From Deltaproteobacteria bacterium (GTDB lineage Bacteria > Desulfobacterota > Desulfobacteria > Desulfobacterales > B30-G6): DNA of 64,000 nucleotides. Below, in pieces: positions 3,372-12,791 of the stretch. Location: NCBI GenBank assembly GCA_022340465.1, contig JAJDNW010000096.1:3280-67279 (forward strand), written 5' to 3'. A model generated the notes under the pieces. That model made no database searches. It worked only from the letters and a program-made list of their open reading frames with translations, and had not been told where the DNA came from. Position 1 is the first letter of the stretch. Every line of letters begins with the position of its first letter. The translations under genes and the position numbers were made by a program.

Positions 3372-3734
3372 ACGATCAATCCTCGCTGATGGTCATCTTC
3401 CTACCCAAGTTGCAACCCCCATGGGGTTTATCCCCCGCCAGTTGCGCGCATCCGGGTGCTCGATATTCTTTTTATTGATTCAGGGTTGCATAGCATACCA
3501 CATGACCCGTCACTTATGCAAAAATTACAGTACTGTTGGCGCGGAAAGCGTTTTGAACCTTGACAGCGGGAACAGCCTCATTGTATTTTTTGTTTACAGA
3601 TTTGCACCAACAATGGAGAAATTCGAGGTTTGATGATAAACATGCGGGCAGATCCTGATTCAATTTAAATTTTCATGGGTGGGTATGAAGCATCGGTGGC
3701 CGTTAAGATCAGTTGAACATGAAAATTTACAACT

Positions 3735-6700
3735 ATGAAATCACTCGGTATATGTCTCGGCGCTTCCTCGGTATCGATTGCCCGGCTTGAAACCGACGGC
3801 AGTGCACCCTCAACTTCCGGCAAGGCGAGAAAACAGCCTCCACGCATGATCGGCAACGCCGTCTACCCCCACGACGGCAACCCGAAAAGGACCCTCGTCG
3901 AGGCACTTGCAGGACTGGATGTAAACCGCTTCGACCGCATCGCCGTCACCGGCAGAAAATTCCGCAGCGTTCTCCGTCTATCGTCAATATCCGAACCCCG
4001 CGCCGTGGAATACGCCTACCGCTACACCCGCCCCCCCGGCGTGTCCTGCCCGGCCATCGTTTCCGCCGGCGGTGAAACCTTCATGGCCTACGTCCTGGAC
4101 AGTTCCGGACGCATCGCCAACGTCCTCACCGGCAACAAGTGTGCATCGGGAACGGGAGAATTTTTCCTGCAGCAAATCCGCCGCATGAACGTATCCCTGG
4201 ACGAAGCCGCCCGCTGGTCCTCGACGGAAAAGCCATACCATGTTTCCGGACGTTGCTCCGTTTTCTGCAAATCGGACTGCACGCACGCCACCAACAAAGG
4301 GGTTCCCAAGTCCCAGGTAACCGCCGGCCTCTGCAAAATGATGGCCGATAAAATTATCGAGCTGCTGAAAAGGGTGGATCGGCGCAACATCATGCTCACC
4401 GGCGGTACGACCAGGAACGGCATGATGGTGACTTACCTCAAACAGGCGATTCCCGGGCTGATTATCCCTAGCGAGGCACCGTACTTCGAAGCGCTGGGAG
4501 CCGCCTTGTGGGCCCTCCAAAACAGCACCCAACGTCCGGCCGACCAGGTCGCCGAGTGGTTTATCGACGGCGCGGCCGCTCCCGCTTGTCTGCCCCCGCT
4601 GAACGAAGCCGCCGATCAGGTCACCTTCAAAACCATAAAAAGCGGCCGCATCGTTCCCGGAAAGGATTGCATTCTGGGGCTGGACGTGGGCTCCACCACC
4701 ACCAAAGCGGTGCTCATGCAAAAGGACAGCAACGCACTGCTGGCCTCGGTCTACCTGCGCACCGACGGCGATCCCGTGGGGGCCTCACGAAAATGTTACA
4801 CCGCTATCCTGAAACAGGTAAAAGGCGTTGTCGACCCGGCCGAGCTTCCCATCGTGGGACTGGGGGTCTGCGGCTCCGGCCGCCAGATTGCCGGCCTGCA
4901 TGCGCTGACCGACGGCGTCATCAATGAAATCGTCGCCCACGCCGCGGCCGCCGTTTTTTTCGATCCGGAAGTCGACACCCTGTTCGAAATCGGCGGCCAG
5001 GATGCCAAATACACCTACATCACCAACGCCGTGCCATCCGATTACGCCATGAATGAAGCCTGCTCGGCGGGGACGGGATCCTTTCTCGAAGAATCCGCCC
5101 TGGAATCGCTGGGCGTCGCCATGGAAGATATCGCCGGCATCGCCCTTCAGGGGAGCAGGCCGCCAAATTTCAACGACCAGTGCGCGGCCTTCATTGCCTC
5201 CGACATTAAAAATGCCATCCACGAGGGCATCCCGCATGCCGACATCGTTGCCGGCCTGGTCTATTCCATCTGCATGAATTACAGCAACCGGGTCAAGGGA
5301 AACAGGACCGTGGGACGCAAGGTGTTCATGCAGGGCGGGGTTTGCTACAACCACGCCGTGCCGCTCGCCATGGCCACGCTTGTCGGCAAGCCCATTGTCG
5401 TCCCCCCGGAGCCCGGACTCATGGGCGCCTTCGGGGTGGCCCTCGAGGTGAGCAAACGACTGGACCTGGGGCTTATGGAGCGTAAAGCCTTCGACCTTGC
5501 CCAACTGGCGGCAAGAGACGTCCGGTACTGCCGCGAGTTCACCTGCAGGGGCGGCAAAGAAAAATGCGATCGAAAATGCACCATCACGATGATAGAGCTG
5601 GAAGGCAAGCGCTATCCCTTTGGCGGTGCCTGCAACCGGTACGACAACCTGCGCCGCCGCATCGAGCACGACACGGCAAAACTGGATCTGGTCCGGGTAC
5701 GCCAGGAACTCGTTTTCAATCTTGAAGGCACCCTGCCCCGCCGGCGTCAAGGCCAGGGATCCAGGGGGCGCATCGGGTTCAACCGCAGTTTCCTGGTCAA
5801 TTCCTATTACCCGCTGTACGCCGCCTTCTTTTCACGCATCGGCTATGAACCGGTACTTCCGGACGAGCCCTCGCAAACCGGAATCGAACAGCGCAATGCG
5901 GCCTTCTGCTACCCCGGTGAGCTGGCCCACGGCTTTTTTCACAGCCTGATCGGAATGGAACCGGCGCCGGACTACCTTTTTCTGCCCCATGCCAAATCCA
6001 TCCCCCTGGAAAACGGCACCCGCTCCTCGCAGGTATGCCCGCTTGTCCAGGGAGAAACCTTTTATCTTCAATCCACTTTTAGAGACAGGCTCAAAGAGCT
6101 TGAAAAAAAGGGCACCCGCGTGCTGGCACCGCTTCTCGATTTGAATGGCGGGTTCGAAAAAGCGCGCGCGCCTCTGCTGGAAACCGCCGGCCGCATGCAT
6201 GTCGACAGAAAAATCGCCCGGCGCGCCTTCGACACGGCCGTGGCGCAACAACAGCTGTGCGTTGATAAAATGCGGGCCGCCGGCCTGCAGGCCCTGGCCG
6301 ACCTCGAGGCCGACCCCGACCGGACCGGCGTGGTCATCTTCTCCAGGCCCTACAACGGTCTGGTGGCCGAAGCCAACATGGGGATTCCCGCAAAACTGGC
6401 CACACGCGGCATCACGGTGATTCCTCTGGATTTCCTGCCTTTTGAAAAGGAGGACGCCAAACGGCATATGTACTGGGGCATGGGTCAGATTATCCTCAGA
6501 GCGGCTCGCCTGGTCAAACGCCACCCCCAGCTGTTCGGGGTATTCATCACCAATTTTTCCTGCGGCCCCGACTCTTTCATCGTCGGGTATTTCAGGTCAA
6601 TCATGGGCCGCAAGCCCTCCCTGACGCTCGAACTGGACAGCCATACGGCCGACGCAGGACTGGATACACGCATCGAAGCCTTTCTCGACATCGTTTCCGC

Positions 6701-8114
6701 TTATCGACAGCTCACCATGCAGAAGCGGATAACGGAAAAAGTCGATCCCTTCAAACCGGCCGAAATCAGCCTCGAGAGAGGCGTTTCCACGGTGGTGACC
6801 ACTTCCGGTAAAAAAATCCCCCTGACCGATCCCCGGGTCACCCTGCTCGTCCCCTCCATGGGCAAGCTGGGGTCCGAAGGTATCGCCGCCGTTTTTCGGG
6901 GGGTGGGCGTCAACGCCGTGGCTCACCCGCCCTCCGACGAAAACGTTCTCAAAATCGGCCGGGGAAACACCTCGTGCAAAGAGTGCCTGCCCCTTATACT
7001 TACCACGGGTACCCTGCTGAACTACGTTAGTCACCGCAAACCCGGCGAGGTAATCGTCTACCTCCTGGCCACCGGCTCAGGCCCCTGCCGCTTCGGGCAG
7101 TACTACATTTTTATGGAAGACCTTATCCGGCGCCTGCAAATCCCCGATGTTGCCGTGTTCACCCTCACTTCCGAAAACTCCTATCTGGGGCTCGACAAAA
7201 CCCTCGAGCGCAGAACCTGGTGGGCGGTGGTCGTTTCGGACATGATGGAGGACATTCGCTCCATGCTGCTGGCAAACGCCGTCGATGTCGTGTCCGCGCT
7301 TTCGCGGTTCGATACCGAATGGCAAGCCATCCTCGAGGCCTTGGAAAGCGGCCGCTTCAAGCACCTGGAAAATCAGCTGTCCCTGAGCACTGCCCGTTTC
7401 AGGGAGATCCCCCTGAAAAAGCCCGCCCGTGACGTTCCCACCATCAATCTGACCGGGGAGATATTCGTACGTCGGGACGGGCTCTCGCGCCGGTATCTTA
7501 CCGAAAAACTGGCTGAAAAGGGTTTCGCCGCCACCTGCACGCCCGTCGCCGAATGGGTTTTCTATTCCGAATACCTCGTCGAGGAGGGCCTGAACGAGCA
7601 CACCATGACCCTGTCTGAAAAATTGCGCTTCAAAATCAGGAAAAAAGTAATGCTGGCAACCGCCAACCGTCTGCGCGCCATTCTGGAAAAAACGGGTCTG
7701 TTCCATAGCGCGGCGGTGGACATTCCCACCATCGTCGGCAACGCCGTGCCTTACATATCAAGAGATCTCACGGGCGAAGCCGTTCTGACCATCGGCGGCT
7801 CCCTGACCGAAATCGGCACGCATGCGTGCGGGGTGATCGCCATCGGCCCCTTCGGCTGCATGCCCAACAGGCTTTCCGAAGCCGTGATGCACGAAACCAT
7901 GCGCCGGAGTGAAAAACTGAAAACCGAACCCGACAATGACGATCTAAAGGCCGTACTGAACCGGGTTGACGACCTGCCGTTTCTGGCCATCGAAAGCGAC
8001 GGCTCCCCCTTCCCTCAAATCATCGAAGCCAAGCTCGAGGCTTTCTGCCTGAGATCGCGTCGCCTGCACGAAAAAATGCTGCGGGCCGGTACCGCCCAGC
8101 CGAAAAGCACCTGA
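3735..8114 (+). CDS. Giant fusion of two BcrAD/BadFG/HgdC-type ATPase (activase) modules with a DUF2229-type CoA-enzyme-activase C-terminal region
   Basis: 1459 aa. There are two ASKHA ATPase repeats, each with the cluster-bridging Cys pair seen in HgdC-like activators: 'NKCASGTGEFF' / 'GRCSVFCKSDCTH', and 'NEACSAGTGSFLEE' / 'NDQCAAFIASDIKNA'. The long C-terminal half carries conserved Cys ('FSCGPDSF', 'GSGPCRFGQYY', 'GPFGCMPN'). Confidence 0.85.
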   Translation: MKSLGICLGASSVSIARLETDGSAPSTSGKARKQPPRMIGNAVYPHDGNPKRTLVEALAGLDVNRFDRIAVTGRKFRSVLRLSSISEPRAVEYAYRYTRPPGVSCPAIVSAGGETFMAYVLDSSGRIANVLTGNKCASGTGEFFLQQIRRMNVSLDEAARWSSTEKPYHVSGRCSVFCKSDCTHATNKGVPKSQVTAGLCKMMADKIIELLKRVDRRNIMLTGGTTRNGMMVTYLKQAIPGLIIPSEAPYFEALGAALWALQNSTQRPADQVAEWFIDGAAAPACLPPLNEAADQVTFKTIKSGRIVPGKDCILGLDVGSTTTKAVLMQKDSNALLASVYLRTDGDPVGASRKCYTAILKQVKGVVDPAELPIVGLGVCGSGRQIAGLHALTDGVINEIVAHAAAAVFFDPEVDTLFEIGGQDAKYTYITNAVPSDYAMNEACSAGTGSFLEESALESLGVAMEDIAGIALQGSRPPNFNDQCAAFIASDIKNAIHEGIPHADIVAGLVYSICMNYSNRVKGNRTVGRKVFMQGGVCYNHAVPLAMATLVGKPIVVPPEPGLMGAFGVALEVSKRLDLGLMERKAFDLAQLAARDVRYCREFTCRGGKEKCDRKCTITMIELEGKRYPFGGACNRYDNLRRRIEHDTAKLDLVRVRQELVFNLEGTLPRRRQGQGSRGRIGFNRSFLVNSYYPLYAAFFSRIGYEPVLPDEPSQTGIEQRNAAFCYPGELAHGFFHSLIGMEPAPDYLFLPHAKSIPLENGTRSSQVCPLVQGETFYLQSTFRDRLKELEKKGTRVLAPLLDLNGGFEKARAPLLETAGRMHVDRKIARRAFDTAVAQQQLCVDKMRAAGLQALADLEADPDRTGVVIFSRPYNGLVAEANMGIPAKLATRGITVIPLDFLPFEKEDAKRHMYWGMGQIILRAARLVKRHPQLFGVFITNFSCGPDSFIVGYFRSIMGRKPSLTLELDSHTADAGLDTRIEAFLDIVSAYRQLTMQKRITEKVDPFKPAEISLERGVSTVVTTSGKKIPLTDPRVTLLVPSMGKLGSEGIAAVFRGVGVNAVAHPPSDENVLKIGRGNTSCKECLPLILTTGTLLNYVSHRKPGEVIVYLLATGSGPCRFGQYYIFMEDLIRRLQIPDVAVFTLTSENSYLGLDKTLERRTWWAVVVSDMMEDIRSMLLANAVDVVSALSRFDTEWQAILEALESGRFKHLENQLSLSTARFREIPLKKPARDVPTINLTGEIFVRRDGLSRRYLTEKLAEKGFAATCTPVAEWVFYSEYLVEEGLNEHTMTLSEKLRFKIRKKVMLATANRLRAILEKTGLFHSAAVDIPTIVGNAVPYISRDLTGEAVLTIGGSLTEIGTHACGVIAIGPFGCMPNRLSEAVMHETMRRSEKLKTEPDNDDLKAVLNRVDDLPFLAIESDGSPFPQIIEAKLEAFCLRSRRLHEKMLRAGTAQPKST

Positions 8115-8125
8115 AAAAAGGAGAT

Positions 8126-9802
8126 ATGCTCTTGCGACAACACAGATCGTTAATAATGACCGCGCCGGCCAAAGCGTACAGGTTGCTTCTATCAGTGTTG
8201 CCCTTTTTCATACTCGCGATAGGTCCAACGGCGCAGGCCGTCAAACCGGAAAGGATTTTGATCCGCAACGTCGCGCTCATCGACCAGAGCGGCAGGCAGG
8301 AGGATGTGATCGTAAATATTCTGGTTCAGAACCACAAGCTTAAACTCGTCACCAAGGACGACATTCCAGACGATGACGTAGACCTGGCGTTCGATGCCAG
8401 GGGAGGCTATCTGATCGGCAAACTGGCCACGGGGCAGGCCCCCAGTTTCATGATCCTTGACCAAGACCCGCGAACCGACATTCAAGTCATGCTGGACACG
8501 GACACCCACGCGCGCTTTGCCATGCAGGAAGGCGTCATCGTCCGCAACCGGCTGAACCGCGCCCGGGCGGCCCATCCCCAGAAAAAGCAGGGTGAATGGT
8601 TTGCCTACTCCCCACCGCCCGTATCGCTTCCCGTGGGGTATCAGAGCGGATCGCGGTGGAACCAGTGGGAAAGTGGATGGACAAACGGGATTCTCATCGG
8701 CACCGTTGTCCTGGACCGTCAGTTCTGGCCCTACCAGAACGGCGGCAGCCGAGAGCGGGAGGGCGACCTCAGCGAATACGAAAGGGGTGAGATCAGGGCC
8801 CTGCGGCTGGGTGTGGTCGGGACCCTGAATTTTGAACTGCCTTGGGTGTACACCCTGTTTGCCGCCACCAACGCCTTCGACCAGGGCTTTGACGCCCGCA
8901 AGGACAAAAACATCAGCCTGCTGGACTGGCGCCTGGACATCCCCCTGTACGAGCAGACATCGCTGTCTCTGGGCAAGCAGAAAGAGCTGATTTCCATGGA
9001 ACGCATCAGCAGCCTGGCCTATCTTCCATGGCAGGAGCGCTCGGCGCCGGCGGACGCCTTTCTCCCATCGCGCAACATCGGCGTAACCATAAGCGGCAAC
9101 GGCTTCGACCAGCGCATGACTTGGGCCGGCGGTGTATACAACGACTGGTTCGACACCGGCAAGGTGTTTAACAAGAGCACCGACCATTACGTGGGGCGCT
9201 TGACCTGGCTGCCCTACCGCGAGGCAAATGAGGATGTGCTCCTGCACCTGGGCGTCGGCCTGCGGTATGACGACGCACACGAGGAGGTCCGCTACAAAAC
9301 CCGGCCGGAATTTTATCAGGCGCCCTTTTTCGTGGATACCGGGCCCATGGCGGCGAACGGTGCCCTGACTTGCGCAACGGAAGTTTCCTACCGCATGGGA
9401 CCCGTTTGGCTGGCCGGTGAGTATATTCGCAGCTGGGTGGACGCACCGGAACTGGGAGACCCCGTTTTAGACGGCTACCATGTCGGCATCAGCTGGGTGC
9501 TCACCGGTGAAATGCGCCGCTACAACAAGAAGAACGGCACCCTCGATCGCTATCCGGTGGCACGTTCGGTCTACCAGGGCGGTCCGGGTGCCTGGGAGGC
9601 GGCCACCCGCTGGTCCAGCATCGACCTAGCCGATGGAGCCGTATCCGGAAGCGCAATGGACATACTTTCCGCCGGTGTCAACTGGTGGCTGTCATCTTTT
9701 TTCCTGACGAGCATCAACTATCGGCGCATCTGGCTTGACAATGAAGAAGGCCATGGTATATCCGACGGTGTCAATTGGCGTGTTATGCTGATGCTCGAAT
9801 AA
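8126..9802 (+). CDS. Phosphate-selective porin O/P-like outer-membrane protein with an N-terminal amidohydrolase-like beta-sandwich domain
   Basis: Signal peptide '...LAIGPTAQA'. The C-terminal two-thirds resembles Porin_O_P, e.g. 'GYHVGISWVLTGEMRRYNKKNGTLD...GGPGAWEAATRWSSIDLADG...SAGVNWWLS'. The N-terminal ~100 aa resembles amidohydrolase flanking strands. An alternative start is the ATG at 8156. Confidence 0.7.
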   Translation: MLLRQHRSLIMTAPAKAYRLLLSVLPFFILAIGPTAQAVKPERILIRNVALIDQSGRQEDVIVNILVQNHKLKLVTKDDIPDDDVDLAFDARGGYLIGKLATGQAPSFMILDQDPRTDIQVMLDTDTHARFAMQEGVIVRNRLNRARAAHPQKKQGEWFAYSPPPVSLPVGYQSGSRWNQWESGWTNGILIGTVVLDRQFWPYQNGGSREREGDLSEYERGEIRALRLGVVGTLNFELPWVYTLFAATNAFDQGFDARKDKNISLLDWRLDIPLYEQTSLSLGKQKELISMERISSLAYLPWQERSAPADAFLPSRNIGVTISGNGFDQRMTWAGGVYNDWFDTGKVFNKSTDHYVGRLTWLPYREANEDVLLHLGVGLRYDDAHEEVRYKTRPEFYQAPFFVDTGPMAANGALTCATEVSYRMGPVWLAGEYIRSWVDAPELGDPVLDGYHVGISWVLTGEMRRYNKKNGTLDRYPVARSVYQGGPGAWEAATRWSSIDLADGAVSGSAMDILSAGVNWWLSSFFLTSINYRRIWLDNEEGHGISDGVNWRVMLMLE

Positions 9803-9853
9803 ACCACAGGGTAAAGCCGTGCGCCACGATTTTATGAAAGGAATGAACTGAAA

Positions 9854-11029
9854 ATGGATAAAAAAGCAGAGGCTTGCAACGACGTTGACAGGTGGAGAAG
9901 CATGCTGTGCATGGCGGCCGTACTGTGCTGTTTTTTGTTTATCATCCCGAACAGTGCGTTGGCGGAGGGCGGAAAGCCGGTGTGGACCCCGGCGGGAGCA
10001 GCCCCCGAGGGTTTCGACTGGATCCAGCTGGCCAACGGCGAATGGTTCAAGGGGGATCTCAAGGTGCTCTACAACGACTCCCTGGAATTCGACAGCGATG
10101 AAGTGGGCCTCTATCAATTCGACTGGGAGGACGTGCAGCAGGTTATCTGCCATCAACCCCAAAGCGTCCGCATCGAGAGCCAGAATACCAAGGAGAAGGA
10201 TCTGTTCAACGCGGGCGGCAATGGCCGGACGGTCGTCGGAATCCTGCGCATAAGAGGGGACAGGGTCTTCGTGGATACCGGAGAGGGGGTCGAGGAATTC
10301 GACCGCAGCAACCTGGTCTCCATTGCACCCGGCAAAGCCAGGGAACTGGACTACTGGGCGGCTAAAATCACCCTCAGCGTCGATATTGCCGCGGGCAACA
10401 GCGAAAAGGAGGATTACAGCGCCAACGCTAACTTCAAACGGCGCACCTCCCTGACTCGCTTCTACCTGGACTATCGCGGCATCTACTCGGAAACCGAAGG
10501 CGTGAAAACGTCGAACAGCCACAGGGCAAACAGCTATTTCGACATCTTCAGCACCCGGCGGTTTTTCTGGCGACCGGTTTTTGCCGAGTATTACCGGGAC
10601 TCTTTCGCCAACATCGCCCACAGGGGAACCATCGGCGCCGGGGCGGGTTACACCATCATCGACACGGCTAAAACCGAGTGGCTCGTTTCCCCCGGAATCG
10701 CCTACATGTTCACCGAGTTCGACTCCGTTCAAGCCGGTGAAGATAAATCCACCTCGACCCCGGCTTTTGTGTTCTCAACCGAATTCGACACCGAGCTGAC
10801 CAACAAAGTCGATTTCAATGCCCTTTACAACTTCAGCGTGGTCAACGAGGAATCGGGGCGCTACACCCACACGGCCAAATCGGGGATAGAAATAGAGCTC
10901 ACCGGCCGTTTGGACCTGGACCTTTCGATCGTCTGGAATCGGATCCAAAAGCCCGAGCCCGCATCCGACGGCAGGGCACCGGAAAAAGACGACTTCTATT
11001 TCTTTTGCGGACTGACGTTCGAACTGTAA
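9854..11029 (+). CDS. DUF481 (YdiY-like) outer-membrane beta-barrel protein
   Basis: 391 aa with a signal peptide '...IIPNSALA'. N-terminal 'WIQLANGEWFKGDLKVLYNDSLEFDSDEVG' repeat-type domain. The C-terminal region has alternating beta-strands and ends in 'GLTFEL', typical of an outer-membrane barrel terminus. Confidence 0.65.
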   Translation: MDKKAEACNDVDRWRSMLCMAAVLCCFLFIIPNSALAEGGKPVWTPAGAAPEGFDWIQLANGEWFKGDLKVLYNDSLEFDSDEVGLYQFDWEDVQQVICHQPQSVRIESQNTKEKDLFNAGGNGRTVVGILRIRGDRVFVDTGEGVEEFDRSNLVSIAPGKARELDYWAAKITLSVDIAAGNSEKEDYSANANFKRRTSLTRFYLDYRGIYSETEGVKTSNSHRANSYFDIFSTRRFFWRPVFAEYYRDSFANIAHRGTIGAGAGYTIIDTAKTEWLVSPGIAYMFTEFDSVQAGEDKSTSTPAFVFSTEFDTELTNKVDFNALYNFSVVNEESGRYTHTAKSGIEIELTGRLDLDLSIVWNRIQKPEPASDGRAPEKDDFYFFCGLTFEL

Positions 11030-11054
11030 GGGCCGCTATCAAAGGCAGACAAAC

Positions 11055-12791
11055 ATGCATTTGCACAAGGTGAACATCATTCTGCTTGCAGCGCTGCTGG
11101 CTTTAATCCCCCTGTGCGCGGGTACGCCGGCATGGTCGGCTGATGAATCCGGCTCATCCGGCGTTGCCAGGCAGAAAATTATCGAGGCCTCTTCCGAGAT
11201 CCCCGATGATGACACCGATCAAATGCTGAAGCGGATCAATGCGAGCTTCAAGCGGCTGAAACGTTATATGAGCCGCCTGAGTGACGCCGGCGCCGAAGAC
11301 CGGGAGGTCCTGCAGCTGCAGATTTACAACGAACGCGTGGCAATTCTGCAAGCGATGCACAGGTTGGCCGATGTCCTTTTGGAGCTGGAAAAAAAAGCGC
11401 CGCAGCCCGAACTGCGACGAGAAATGGAAAGCGCCTTTACACGCATCGTGCCCCAATTCTGGCACCACATCGGTAGACTGCGCAACGACATCGACAAGGC
11501 CCGCGCCCAGCGGAGCGAAGCCGACGTGGAATCGCTGCAGAGCATCGAATACGAAATTGCCAAACTCACGAAACGGCTCGATGTGTTTTTCCGGCTGAGT
11601 TTTGAACACCTTCTCAAAATGGAAACCGTGGGAATGGCGGTGGAGACACCGCGCCGGAAGCTGTCCGTTTTACTGACGGACCGCAGCGATGAACTTACGG
11701 GTAGAATAAAGCTGGCCTTGATGCGTATCGAGGACCTGGAAAAACAGCGCAAGGATCTGCCGGATAGCGCCGCCATTAGCGCTCGCTTGGTTGCAACCCG
11801 CATGGGCCTGAATACCAACGTCGCCAGTCTCCAGGCCACGTTGGATCTGATGGAAAATCTGGACTTGGACACCAGGGCGCCCCGCGCCCTCCTGGTCACA
11901 GCCACCCACGATATCGGGTCCGGCCTGCTGGACACAGGCGTAGCCTTCAACCTGGCCCATCGCACGACGAAGCGTTTCACGGCCTGGATCATCGAAAAAG
12001 GGCCCGGGTACCTGATCAAGGCACTCGCCCTGCTCGCAATTTTGTCGGCCTTCATTTTTGCCTCCCGCGTTATCCGTGCCGGATTGGACAAAGCCCTCAG
12101 GGCCTCCAACCTGAACCTCTCGACCCTGGCCCGCCGAATGCTGATCTCGACGGCATCCAAGCTGGTTGTCATCTTGGGCATCATGGTCATTCTGTCCCAG
12201 ATAGGTATCAGCCTGGGGCCGCTGTTGGCCGGACTCGGTGTGGTAGGCTTTATCGTCGGCTTTGCCCTGCAGGACAGCCTGAGCAATTTTGCGGCGGGCG
12301 TGATGATTCTTCTCTACCGCCCTTACGACGTGGGTGATTTCGTGGACGTGGGCGGCGTTTTCGGCGCGGTGGAGCGAATGAGTCTGGTATCCACCAGTTT
12401 GCTCACCATCGACAACCAAGTGTACATCGTTCCCAACAGCAAAATCTGGGGAGACGTGATAAAAAACGTCACGGCGCAAAAACTCCGCAGGGTGGACATG
12501 GTGTTCGGTATATCCTACCGTGACGACGTGGAAAAAGCCGAAGCGGTCCTGGCGGATATCTTAAAATCCCATGGCAAGGTGCTCGACTACCCGGAATCCA
12601 AGATACGGCTCCACAAGCTCGGCGAGTCGTCCGTCGATTTCGTCGTGCGCCCCTGGGTAAAGGTCGACGACTACTGGGATGTCTACTGGGATATCACCCG
12701 TGCGGTCAAATTGCGCTTTGACGAAGAAAACATTTCCATCCCATTCCCGCAGCGCGATGTGCATCTTTACAACGAAGACAAGGAGAAATAG
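11055..12791 (+). CDS. Mechanosensitive ion channel (MscS family) with a long N-terminal periplasmic coiled-coil domain
   Basis: 578 aa with a signal peptide and a charged helical N-domain. MscS pore and beta-domain signature: 'GFALQDSLSNFAAGVMILLYRPYDVGDFVDVGGVFGAVERMSLVSTSLLTIDNQVYIVPNSKIW'. Confidence 0.85.
   Translation: MHLHKVNIILLAALLALIPLCAGTPAWSADESGSSGVARQKIIEASSEIPDDDTDQMLKRINASFKRLKRYMSRLSDAGAEDREVLQLQIYNERVAILQAMHRLADVLLELEKKAPQPELRREMESAFTRIVPQFWHHIGRLRNDIDKARAQRSEADVESLQSIEYEIAKLTKRLDVFFRLSFEHLLKMETVGMAVETPRRKLSVLLTDRSDELTGRIKLALMRIEDLEKQRKDLPDSAAISARLVATRMGLNTNVASLQATLDLMENLDLDTRAPRALLVTATHDIGSGLLDTGVAFNLAHRTTKRFTAWIIEKGPGYLIKALALLAILSAFIFASRVIRAGLDKALRASNLNLSTLARRMLISTASKLVVILGIMVILSQIGISLGPLLAGLGVVGFIVGFALQDSLSNFAAGVMILLYRPYDVGDFVDVGGVFGAVERMSLVSTSLLTIDNQVYIVPNSKIWGDVIKNVTAQKLRRVDMVFGISYRDDVEKAEAVLADILKSHGKVLDYPESKIRLHKLGESSVDFVVRPWVKVDDYWDVYWDITRAVKLRFDEENISIPFPQRDVHLYNEDKEK

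Follow-up and report, generated by a model that had tools for sequence, protein, structure and literature searches.

An OprO/OprP-type porin subfamily with an N-terminal amidohydrolase beta-sandwich that lacks the catalytic barrel

What is the domain that precedes the membrane barrel of an OprO/OprP-type porin in a deltaproteobacterium of the order Desulfobacterales, where did it come from, and what may it do in the periplasm? We addressed this question for a 64,000-nucleotide stretch of contig JAJDNW010000096.1 (assembly GCA_022340465.1, positions 3,280 to 67,279 of the forward strand; hereafter the window), in which an open reading frame (ORF) at positions 8126-9802 of the plus strand encodes a porin of 558 amino acids. 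A preliminary description of this DNA had singled out the interval 8237-8560, which corresponds to residues 38-145 of the ORF and contains the peptide strings quoted there, and had read it as the composite beta-sandwich of amidohydrolases after removal of the catalytic TIM barrel. We found that this N-terminal domain (N-domain) is the composite accessory sandwich, a fold which we take to be SCOP b.92.1 / CATH 2.30.40.10, of an amidohydrolase from the Xaa-Pro-dipeptidase / Arg-carboxypeptidase / ochratoxinase subgroup (Protein Data Bank (PDB) entries 3mkv, 3feq and 2qs8). All parts of the porin ORF described below lie on the plus strand.

Scans of the porin ORF against the Pfam and NCBIfam libraries gave no match over residues 38-145, and in a phmmer search of the PDB the single N-domain sequence matched only the C-termini of amidohydrolases, and these weakly (3feq, E-value 0.068). 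Since the single-sequence and library scans were empty or marginal, a family profile was needed, and it was derived from an alignment of the N-domain alone (alignment A2). Against the PDB, the A2 profile matched 3mkv (E-value 6.9e-5) in two collinear pieces: profile positions 3-57 align with chain residues 5-58, and positions 57-104 with chain residues 369-416, and the barrel of the enzyme, chain residues 59-368, is jumped at one position of the profile. Of the nine PDB matches of this profile, eight are amidohydrolases (3mkv, 3feq, 4whb, 2qs8, 1gkr, 4wgx, 4ub9 and 3icj).

The same two-piece correspondence was obtained with enzymes encoded next to homologous porins. We spliced the barrel, 314-322 residues in each case, out of 11 full-length amidohydrolases of this kind and compared the resulting profile with A2 using HHalign. 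The two profiles aligned end to end (probability 98.5%, E-value 3.1e-15, 102 columns), from the first residue past the enzyme signal peptide to the last residues of the enzyme (MKDGxIYKNTL-stop in the enzymes, MQEGVIVRNRL in the porin). Reciprocally, a hidden Markov model (HMM) of the full enzymes detected the porins at E-values of 3e-8 to 8e-6.

The N-terminal piece of the sandwich (8246-8416, residues 41-97) was delimited with the profile match to 3mkv, the neighbor enzymes (HMM positions 2-57 of 71) and Foldseek; its homologous stretch in 3mkv-type amidohydrolases comprises the first ~55 mature residues, after which the enzymes run on into PG-x-x-D/E-x-H-x-H. The C-terminal piece (8414-8563, residues 97-146), delimited with the profile matches to 3mkv, 3feq and 4whb and with the neighbor enzymes, corresponds by homology to the final ~47-60 residues of the enzymes and ends at the enzyme C-terminus. 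Thus, homology accounts for both halves of the sandwich, to which the enzyme contributes ~55 residues from its N-terminus and ~50 from its C-terminus. The excision scar lies at the tetrapeptide Y-L-I-G (8408-8419, residues 95-98), where 314-322 barrel residues are missing, and in the structural models DSSP assigned residues 87-99 to one unbroken strand running across the old junction.

The fold searches point the same way. An AlphaFold2 (AF2) model of the N-domain alone had a predicted local distance difference test (pLDDT) score of 93.4 and a predicted template modeling (pTM) score of 0.85, and the 50 best Foldseek matches of this model in the PDB were without exception amidohydrolase-superfamily proteins, among them dihydroorotase, dihydropyrimidinase/CRMP, triazine hydrolase, AtzA, isoaspartyl dipeptidase, 3mkv, 3n2c and 2qs8. 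The agreement of profile, profile-profile and fold searches bears out the identification made in the preliminary description. Chance resemblance or an assembly artefact, for which only the weak single-sequence E-values speak, has a negligible probability: the concordant profile, profile-profile, reciprocal and fold searches refute a chance match or a chimeric join, and 59 of 80 independent loci from reference genomes, complete genomes of cultured strains among them, have the same architecture.

What remains of the enzyme cannot be expected to act as one. Relative to the 11 neighbor enzymes, 314-322 residues of the (beta/alpha)8 barrel are absent (typically ~318). No HxH motif follows the 'DA..G..L' strand of the N-domain, whereas the enzymes carry HxH after 'PG', and a Pfam scan of the porin ORF gave no match to Amidohydro_1 or Amidohydro_3. 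The feature that defines an amidohydrolase enzyme, a (beta/alpha)8 barrel (PF01979 / PF07969) with HxH, Lys/Glu, His, His and Asp as metal ligands, is therefore missing from the protein. With the barrel and all metal ligands gone, the sequence identifies the N-domain as non-catalytic and the porin as no amidohydrolase enzyme.

The second half of the protein is a porin, as the preliminary description had held. The only Pfam match of the ORF is Porin_O_P (PF07396), which covers residues 222-532 (E-value 2.1e-26; score 93.5 bits, gathering cut-off 20.9). The barrel module, including the stop codon, extends over 8681-9802 (residues 186-558), as delimited by PF07396, DSSP and Foldseek; DSSP counted 16 barrel strands in the AF2 model, and the best fold matches were OprP (2o4v, E-value 1.4e-18, target-normalized TM-score 0.70) and OprO (E-value 5.9e-18). 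For the channel interior we used as a criterion the phosphate-site and arginine-ladder residues of OprP (D94, Y62, S124, S125, K121, K126, R34 and R133). In the profile alignment to OprP, R293 falls at K121 and the invariant pair E304-R305 at E132-R133; K121 and R133 belong to the central phosphate sites of OprP (PMC5877670). R293 is conserved in at least 90% of the family and R305 is invariant; the positions of K126 and S124/S125 are not conserved in the porin family, and the N-terminal half of OprP lies outside the alignment. As a basic residue has been retained at each of the positions of K121 and R133, the channel is plausibly anion-binding, as far as can be judged from aligned residues.

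In the established topology of 16-strand porins the N-terminus is periplasmic, which places the sandwich in the periplasm. The preliminary description had suggested that it could serve there as a plug or as a ligand-binding module. A cap, or a module that binds a ligand or a partner in the periplasm, would be conceivable. The plug did not hold up: judging from the strand number, a 16-strand barrel is too small for a 12-kDa domain, and a plug inside the barrel is unlikely. TonB-dependent receptors carry their N-terminal globular plug inside a 22-strand barrel. Our porin has 16 strands, an OprP-like topology and no Pfam match to Plug or TonB_dep_Rec, and thus differs from that architecture.

The regions flanking the sandwich were delimited as follows. 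The ORF opens with the start region and a Sec signal peptide (8126-8239, residues 1-38, ending in ...LLLSVLPFFILAIGPTAQA directly before VKPE), whose AxA cleavage motif can be read straight off the sequence. A GGAG element at 8120-8123 is 2 nt away from the ATG at 8126 and 8 nt away from a TTG at 8132. Because of this spacing and because the database copy of the porin (P0002) has 556 amino acids, TTG 8132 is likely the true start; the signal peptide precedes the N-domain whichever start is used. Behind the sandwich lies a variable, flexible linker rich in E, P, D and K (8564-8596), which was recognized by its pLDDT, family length range and composition and which, in the aligned segment of residues 144-157, is 12-22 amino acids long across the family. 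In the full-length AF2 model (pLDDT 82) the N-domain is confident (~90), residues 147-174 are disordered (below 50) and the 16-strand barrel follows. The N-domain is acidic, with a mean net charge of -6.9.

The linker is followed by a conserved N-terminal extension of the barrel (8597-8680, residues 158-185; gW-l-AY-t-PPP-x-a-l-P-x-x-Y...kWN-r-w). Within it W158, Y161, P164, P165, W178 and N179 are invariant, and the motif W158-x-A-Y161-x-P-P164-P165...W178-N179 as a whole is almost invariant. Three sister porins without the N-domain (L064, L067 and L068) begin with the corresponding Y-PP...WN...W motif right past the signal peptide, and thus the motif belongs to the barrel module and not to the added domain. 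The same segment, W-x-AY-x-PPP...Y...WN-x-W, is of low confidence in the monomer model; it may belong to the trimer interface or take part in strand exchange. At its other end the porin (...RVMLMLE, 9779-9799) terminates in an acidic residue. The canonical beta-signal of outer-membrane proteins has an aromatic C-terminal residue; E or D stands at this position in 54 of the 67 porins longer than 400 amino acids found in the 80 loci. The acidic end is shared by the domain-bearing clade and its sisters in Campylobacterota, and F or W is the last residue of the more remote Porin_O_P outgroups.

Porins of this architecture are not rare; they are widely distributed among bacteria from marine and sediment habitats. 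A search of 5.8 billion proteins yielded at least 464 homologs with E-values of 1e-3 or better among the 8000 candidates scored. With two shorter exceptions, the best 120 homologs have 530-610 amino acids, and they cover 88-100% of the query, which shows that the architecture is conserved as a whole. The mean column identity of the N-domain, aligned alone (A2), is 63%, against 52% for the whole protein in an alignment of 53 sequences (A1); its consensus is LIRNVxLID...VNILI...VDAxxGxLxGxLxxGxxPSFxILDxDPR...LLDTxT...FA...G..V.N. In a scan restricted to one genome per species we found 80 loci, 59 of which hold a domain-bearing porin. The carriers belong to Gammaproteobacteria (Woeseiaceae, Halieaceae, Colwellia, Oleispira and Lysobacterales), Betaproteobacteria, Desulfobacterota, Acidobacteriota and Bacteroidota (Algoriphagus and Cyclobacteriaceae), and include the cultured Colwellia demingiae, Congregibacter brevis, Algoriphagus spp., Seongchinamella unica and Pseudohalioglobus sediminis. 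One locus (L036) lies on a contig labeled as a metagenome-assembled genome (MAG) of the archaeon Nitrosopumilus sp.; its porin groups with those of Gamma- and Betaproteobacteria on the tree, and the contig is almost certainly a bin contamination.

The contiguous N-domain was also detected in 281 clusters (E-value of 1e-3 or better) among 1.84 billion representative proteins. Among the matches listed, it is confined to the N-terminus of this porin family and almost always starts ~25-60 residues from that end; full-length members have 541-583 amino acids, and the remaining shorter ones look like fragments. Sixty-five short proteins matched the N-domain, and those on short contigs are truncations. 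Three candidates for a stand-alone domain that lie on long contigs (P0159, P0178 and P0168) were checked and proved to be frameshift-split porin genes of fragmented assemblies, with a Porin_O_P fragment directly after; no genuine stand-alone homolog was found among the short profile matches. One metagenomic homolog (P0091) has a low-complexity insertion of ~46 residues, rich in E, P and A, which separates 'LIDQ' from 'DVIVN' in the first sandwich hairpin (A1 columns 113-158), so this loop tolerates large insertions.

On a maximum-likelihood tree built from the barrel region alone, all domain-bearing porins form one clade (SH-aLRT support 99), and the domain-less sisters, from Campylobacterota and one genome of Acidobacteriota, fall outside it together with the coiled-coil outgroups. 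Two porins within the clade appear to lack the domain. One of them (L054) is cut by a contig end, with the last 25 domain residues still visible. The other (L057, a Marinacidobacterales MAG, 5846-7204) is the only clade member without an N-domain; the sequence at its 5' end resembles a W-AY-PPP region with a frameshift, no remnant of the N-domain is detectable, and the gene is probably a decayed or mis-assembled copy. As there is a single clade and both apparent losses are explained, the N-domain was acquired once, in the ancestor of this porin clade. The phyla are intermixed on the tree, suggesting horizontal spread of the domain-bearing porins.

A candidate donor is encoded near many of these porins. 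Fifteen full Amidohydro_1 enzymes were found within 6 kb of the porin in 13 loci, all from Gamma- or Betaproteobacteria. They have signal peptides and intact HxH motifs, and their best PDB relatives are 3mkv (E-value 1e-58), 3feq, 2qs8, Cc2672 and ochratoxinase; 3mkv, 3feq and 2qs8 also head the match list of the N-domain itself. The commonest gene order is a divergent AraC-family regulator gene followed by the amidohydrolase, an OprB-family barrel and the porin (AraC< amidohydrolase> OprB> porin>), and in two loci (L026 and L059) the amidohydrolase gene directly abuts the porin gene. Given an enzyme located upstream, a shared donor subfamily and homology that extends from the first mature residue to the stop codon, we infer that the N-domain probably arose by fusion and later excision. 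An exported amidohydrolase gene directly upstream of the porin gene would have fused with it, and the barrel of ~318 residues would then have been lost in frame, leaving a contiguous sandwich on the porin. We hold with good confidence the joint picture of an amidohydrolase-derived, non-catalytic domain that was gained once in this manner. The linkage itself is scattered over the porin tree, with 11 changes for 12 linked loci, which equals the shuffled value, and so shows no clustering; this is compatible with an ancestral linkage that was patchily retained, and it neither proves nor excludes it.

The proteobacterial cluster (L007, L039, L040, L005, L006, L026, L030, L033, L069 and others) comprises the AraC regulator, the exported 3mkv-type amidohydrolase, sometimes a Peptidase_M19 or a PhoD-like phosphatase, the OprB-family barrel, a protein of ~270-414 residues and the porin, and it looks like a nutrient-scavenging envelope locus. 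Clustering of the flanking ORFs across loci gave the OprB-family barrel in 18 loci, AraC regulators in nine and the ~270-414-residue protein, which had no Pfam match, in eight; other recurrent flanking genes encode sulfatases, the Peptidase_M19 dipeptidase, the PhoD-like phosphatase, and DUF1254/DUF1214, DUF4136 and MscS proteins.

The proximity of donor-type enzymes raises the possibility that the sandwich serves as their dock. The donor subgroup consists of homo-octameric carboxypeptidase-like enzymes with D4 symmetry (PMC11342369), and the sandwich might keep an oligomerization surface of theirs and bring an exported amidohydrolase of the dipeptidase type to the mouth of the porin on the periplasmic side, thus coupling uptake to hydrolysis. 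In line with this proposal, the 13 linked loci often have the enzyme gene in the same apparent operon, sometimes with the Peptidase_M19 dipeptidase, and 22 of 29 carrier genomes encode a 3mkv-type enzyme. However, the other seven do not, including both Desulfobacterota tested, and the genome of the window (95% complete) has no close ortholog of the amidohydrolase. Conservation of the N-domain is not relaxed where the enzyme is missing: the ratio of N-domain to barrel conservation is 0.73 in enzyme-free and 0.74 in enzyme-encoding genomes (p = 0.75), and 0.76 in loci with and 0.75 in loci without an adjacent enzyme (p = 0.64). Since these ratios are indistinguishable, the selective constraint on the N-domain is independent of the enzyme, and obligate dependence on an amidohydrolase is rejected. 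Moreover, the N-domain is only ~25% identical to the sandwiches of the neighbor enzymes and yet highly conserved across phyla, which is not expected of an interface that co-evolves with a partner encoded nearby. We therefore consider an enzyme dock distinctly unlikely.

Enzyme-independent constraint together with high cross-phylum conservation points to a universal partner, most simply the porin itself, and the role of the N-domain is thus probably intrinsic to the porin; its confinement to the N-terminus of this porin family agrees with such a role. We tentatively propose, as one possibility that we favor without great confidence, that an acidic sandwich would hang beneath each pore of the trimer on its flexible, acidic and proline-rich tether of 12-22 residues and would act as a periplasmic cap, vestibule or interaction module. 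In this capacity it would modulate the periplasmic exit or the assembly of an anion-binding channel, and it would be neither an enzyme, nor an in-barrel plug, nor an obligate amidohydrolase dock.

The same universal constraint would also suit an envelope anchor or trimer stabilizer, comparable to the SLH domains or coiled coils of other porins. The domain on its tether would then attach to peptidoglycan or to another component that every periplasm contains, or it would form trimers under the barrel and so stabilize the porin. By analogy, three Porin_O_P members (L077-L079) bear N-terminal coiled coils at the same position, and the succession of barrel, flexible Pro- and Glu-rich hinge and globular domain resembles OmpA-type tethered domains. 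The sandwich, however, is not a known peptidoglycan-binding fold, it is strongly acidic, and the sister porins function without any appendage; on balance this role is doubtful. A functionless relic of the fusion or a folding aid, kept as harmless or as a help in periplasmic transit, could likewise be imagined in view of the domain-less sisters and of an N-domain in which no novel motif resembling a ligand site is evident. But the domain is retained in essentially every member of the clade in at least four phyla, with one decayed copy only, and its columns are better conserved than those of the protein as a whole; a neutral appendage of 105 residues would have been lost or degraded, which makes a relic very improbable.

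The neighbors of the porin gene in the window itself could in principle supply partners. Upstream, at 3735-8114 of the plus strand, is a gene for a 1459-residue protein with two BcrAD_BadFG ATPase modules and a DUF2229 domain ('CoA enzyme activase'), which ends 12 nt before the porin ORF. Downstream, at 9854-12791 (plus strand), are a gene for a DUF481 outer-membrane protein and one for a 578-residue MscS-like channel (11055-12791), which carries a signal peptide and whose long N-terminal region is probably periplasmic. The activase-porin juxtaposition is lineage-specific, as none of the other 80 loci was found to have a counterpart of the activase next to the porin. The DUF481 protein had no counterpart beside the porin in these loci either, and the MscS protein of the window, used as a query, matched in one locus. 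On this search the activase, DUF481 and MscS proteins of the window were rejected as functional partners, although MscS recurs loosely once an HMM is used. Scans for promoters and terminators around the porin gene performed no better than chance; ahead of the activase gene they gave only a promoter-like site (3560-3589), and before the MscS gene no convincing terminator, and from the sequence co-transcription of 3735-12791 is possible.

An HMM search for MscS-like genes in general (encoding about 280-580 residues) found them downstream of the porin in ~7 loci from several phyla (the window, L023, L028, L031, L074, L091 and L092), often past a DUF4136 lipoprotein or DUF481 gene. Coupling of the porin to an inner-membrane MscS-type channel or another envelope partner, in which the N-domain would contact the large periplasmic region of the MscS-like protein to form a trans-envelope solute route, would be in keeping with this arrangement in the window and six other loci. 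It is nevertheless confined to ~7 of roughly 85 loci and most carriers lack it, so we regard such coupling as highly improbable. A broader version, in which the sandwich is a docking adaptor that couples an anion-binding porin to periplasmic or inner-membrane partners, is unlikely as well, if less so; in Proteobacteria it would bind the amidohydrolase of the dipeptidase type that is exported there, and in other groups the MscS-like channel or further envelope proteins. If true, it would amount to a previously unknown porin-centred trans-envelope 'metabolon' built from a hollowed-out enzyme gene.

Several points weigh against the account that we prefer, in which a sandwich obtained by fusion and excision serves the porin as a cap, vestibule or interaction module. 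The Foldseek alignments span only ~56-60 columns, that is, the N-terminal half of the N-domain, because in the enzymes the C-terminal half sits 300 residues further on; homology of the C-terminal half thus comes from sequence profiles alone. The splice points in the neighbor enzymes were set from the HMM alignment, which brings some circularity into their placement. An already truncated, duplicated gene could have been fused instead of a complete one that was shortened later. The flexible linker fits a binding module that reaches out at least as well as a docked cap. Finally, the Gene3D or SUPERFAMILY models of InterPro may tag this region as a composite domain already.

The preliminary description had not recognized this arrangement as a standard architecture. 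It is indeed absent from the Pfam and NCBIfam collections, which hold no model for the N-domain, and literature searches for a barrel-less amidohydrolase sandwich on a porin returned nothing relevant. The new element is an enzyme-derived periplasmic domain on an otherwise known OprO/OprP-type porin. It is an unusually clean natural case of domain excision, in which a discontinuous composite domain has become a contiguous and apparently autonomous fold (pLDDT 93). The resulting sandwich was then put to use on a membrane protein, and in many genomes the probable donor gene still lies next to the porin gene. The porins concerned form a large unannotated subfamily with a new class of periplasmic appendage. 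Four well-sampled phyla or more contain such porins, and among the prominent carriers are Woeseiaceae, Halieaceae, Desulfobacterota, Acidobacteriota and Cyclobacteriaceae from marine and sediment habitats. The current labels of these porins say no more than 'phosphate-selective porin OprO/OprP' or 'hypothetical'; with a domain model of residues 41-146 all of them would be annotated. The cultured carriers make the function of the N-domain testable.

Among known systems, the closest relatives of the membrane part are the phosphate- and pyrophosphate-specific porins OprP and OprO of Pseudomonas aeruginosa (2o4v, 4rjw), which share the PF07396 family and the 16-strand barrel. The domain-bearing porin is only ~18% identical to them, adds a sandwich of 105 residues and a linker, ends in an acidic and not an aromatic residue, and lies outside a pho-type context. 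A trimeric-porin-type barrel behind a tethered periplasmic module is likewise found in SLH porins (OmpM of Veillonella, 8byt, and the cyanobacterial SLH-OprB proteins) and in the coiled-coil Porin_O_P proteins (L077-L079), the latter belonging to the same Pfam family as our porin; the SLH domains anchor their porins to peptidoglycan. In these proteins the module is an SLH domain or a coiled coil, whereas here it is a beta-sandwich. The composite domain of amidohydrolases (3mkv, 3feq/3n2c, 2qs8, 3mtw and 4c5y) has the same fold as the N-domain and is homologous to it in both halves, in the same order. In the enzymes the halves are split by the (beta/alpha)8 barrel of ~318 residues, whereas in the porin they are contiguous, without metal ligands and attached to a membrane barrel. 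A comparable fate befell the CRMP/DPYSL proteins, which are among the Foldseek matches of the N-domain: these amidohydrolase-superfamily members have lost catalysis and were co-opted for protein-protein interactions. However, CRMPs keep the barrel and have lost the metal site only, while in the porin N-domain the barrel itself has been deleted.

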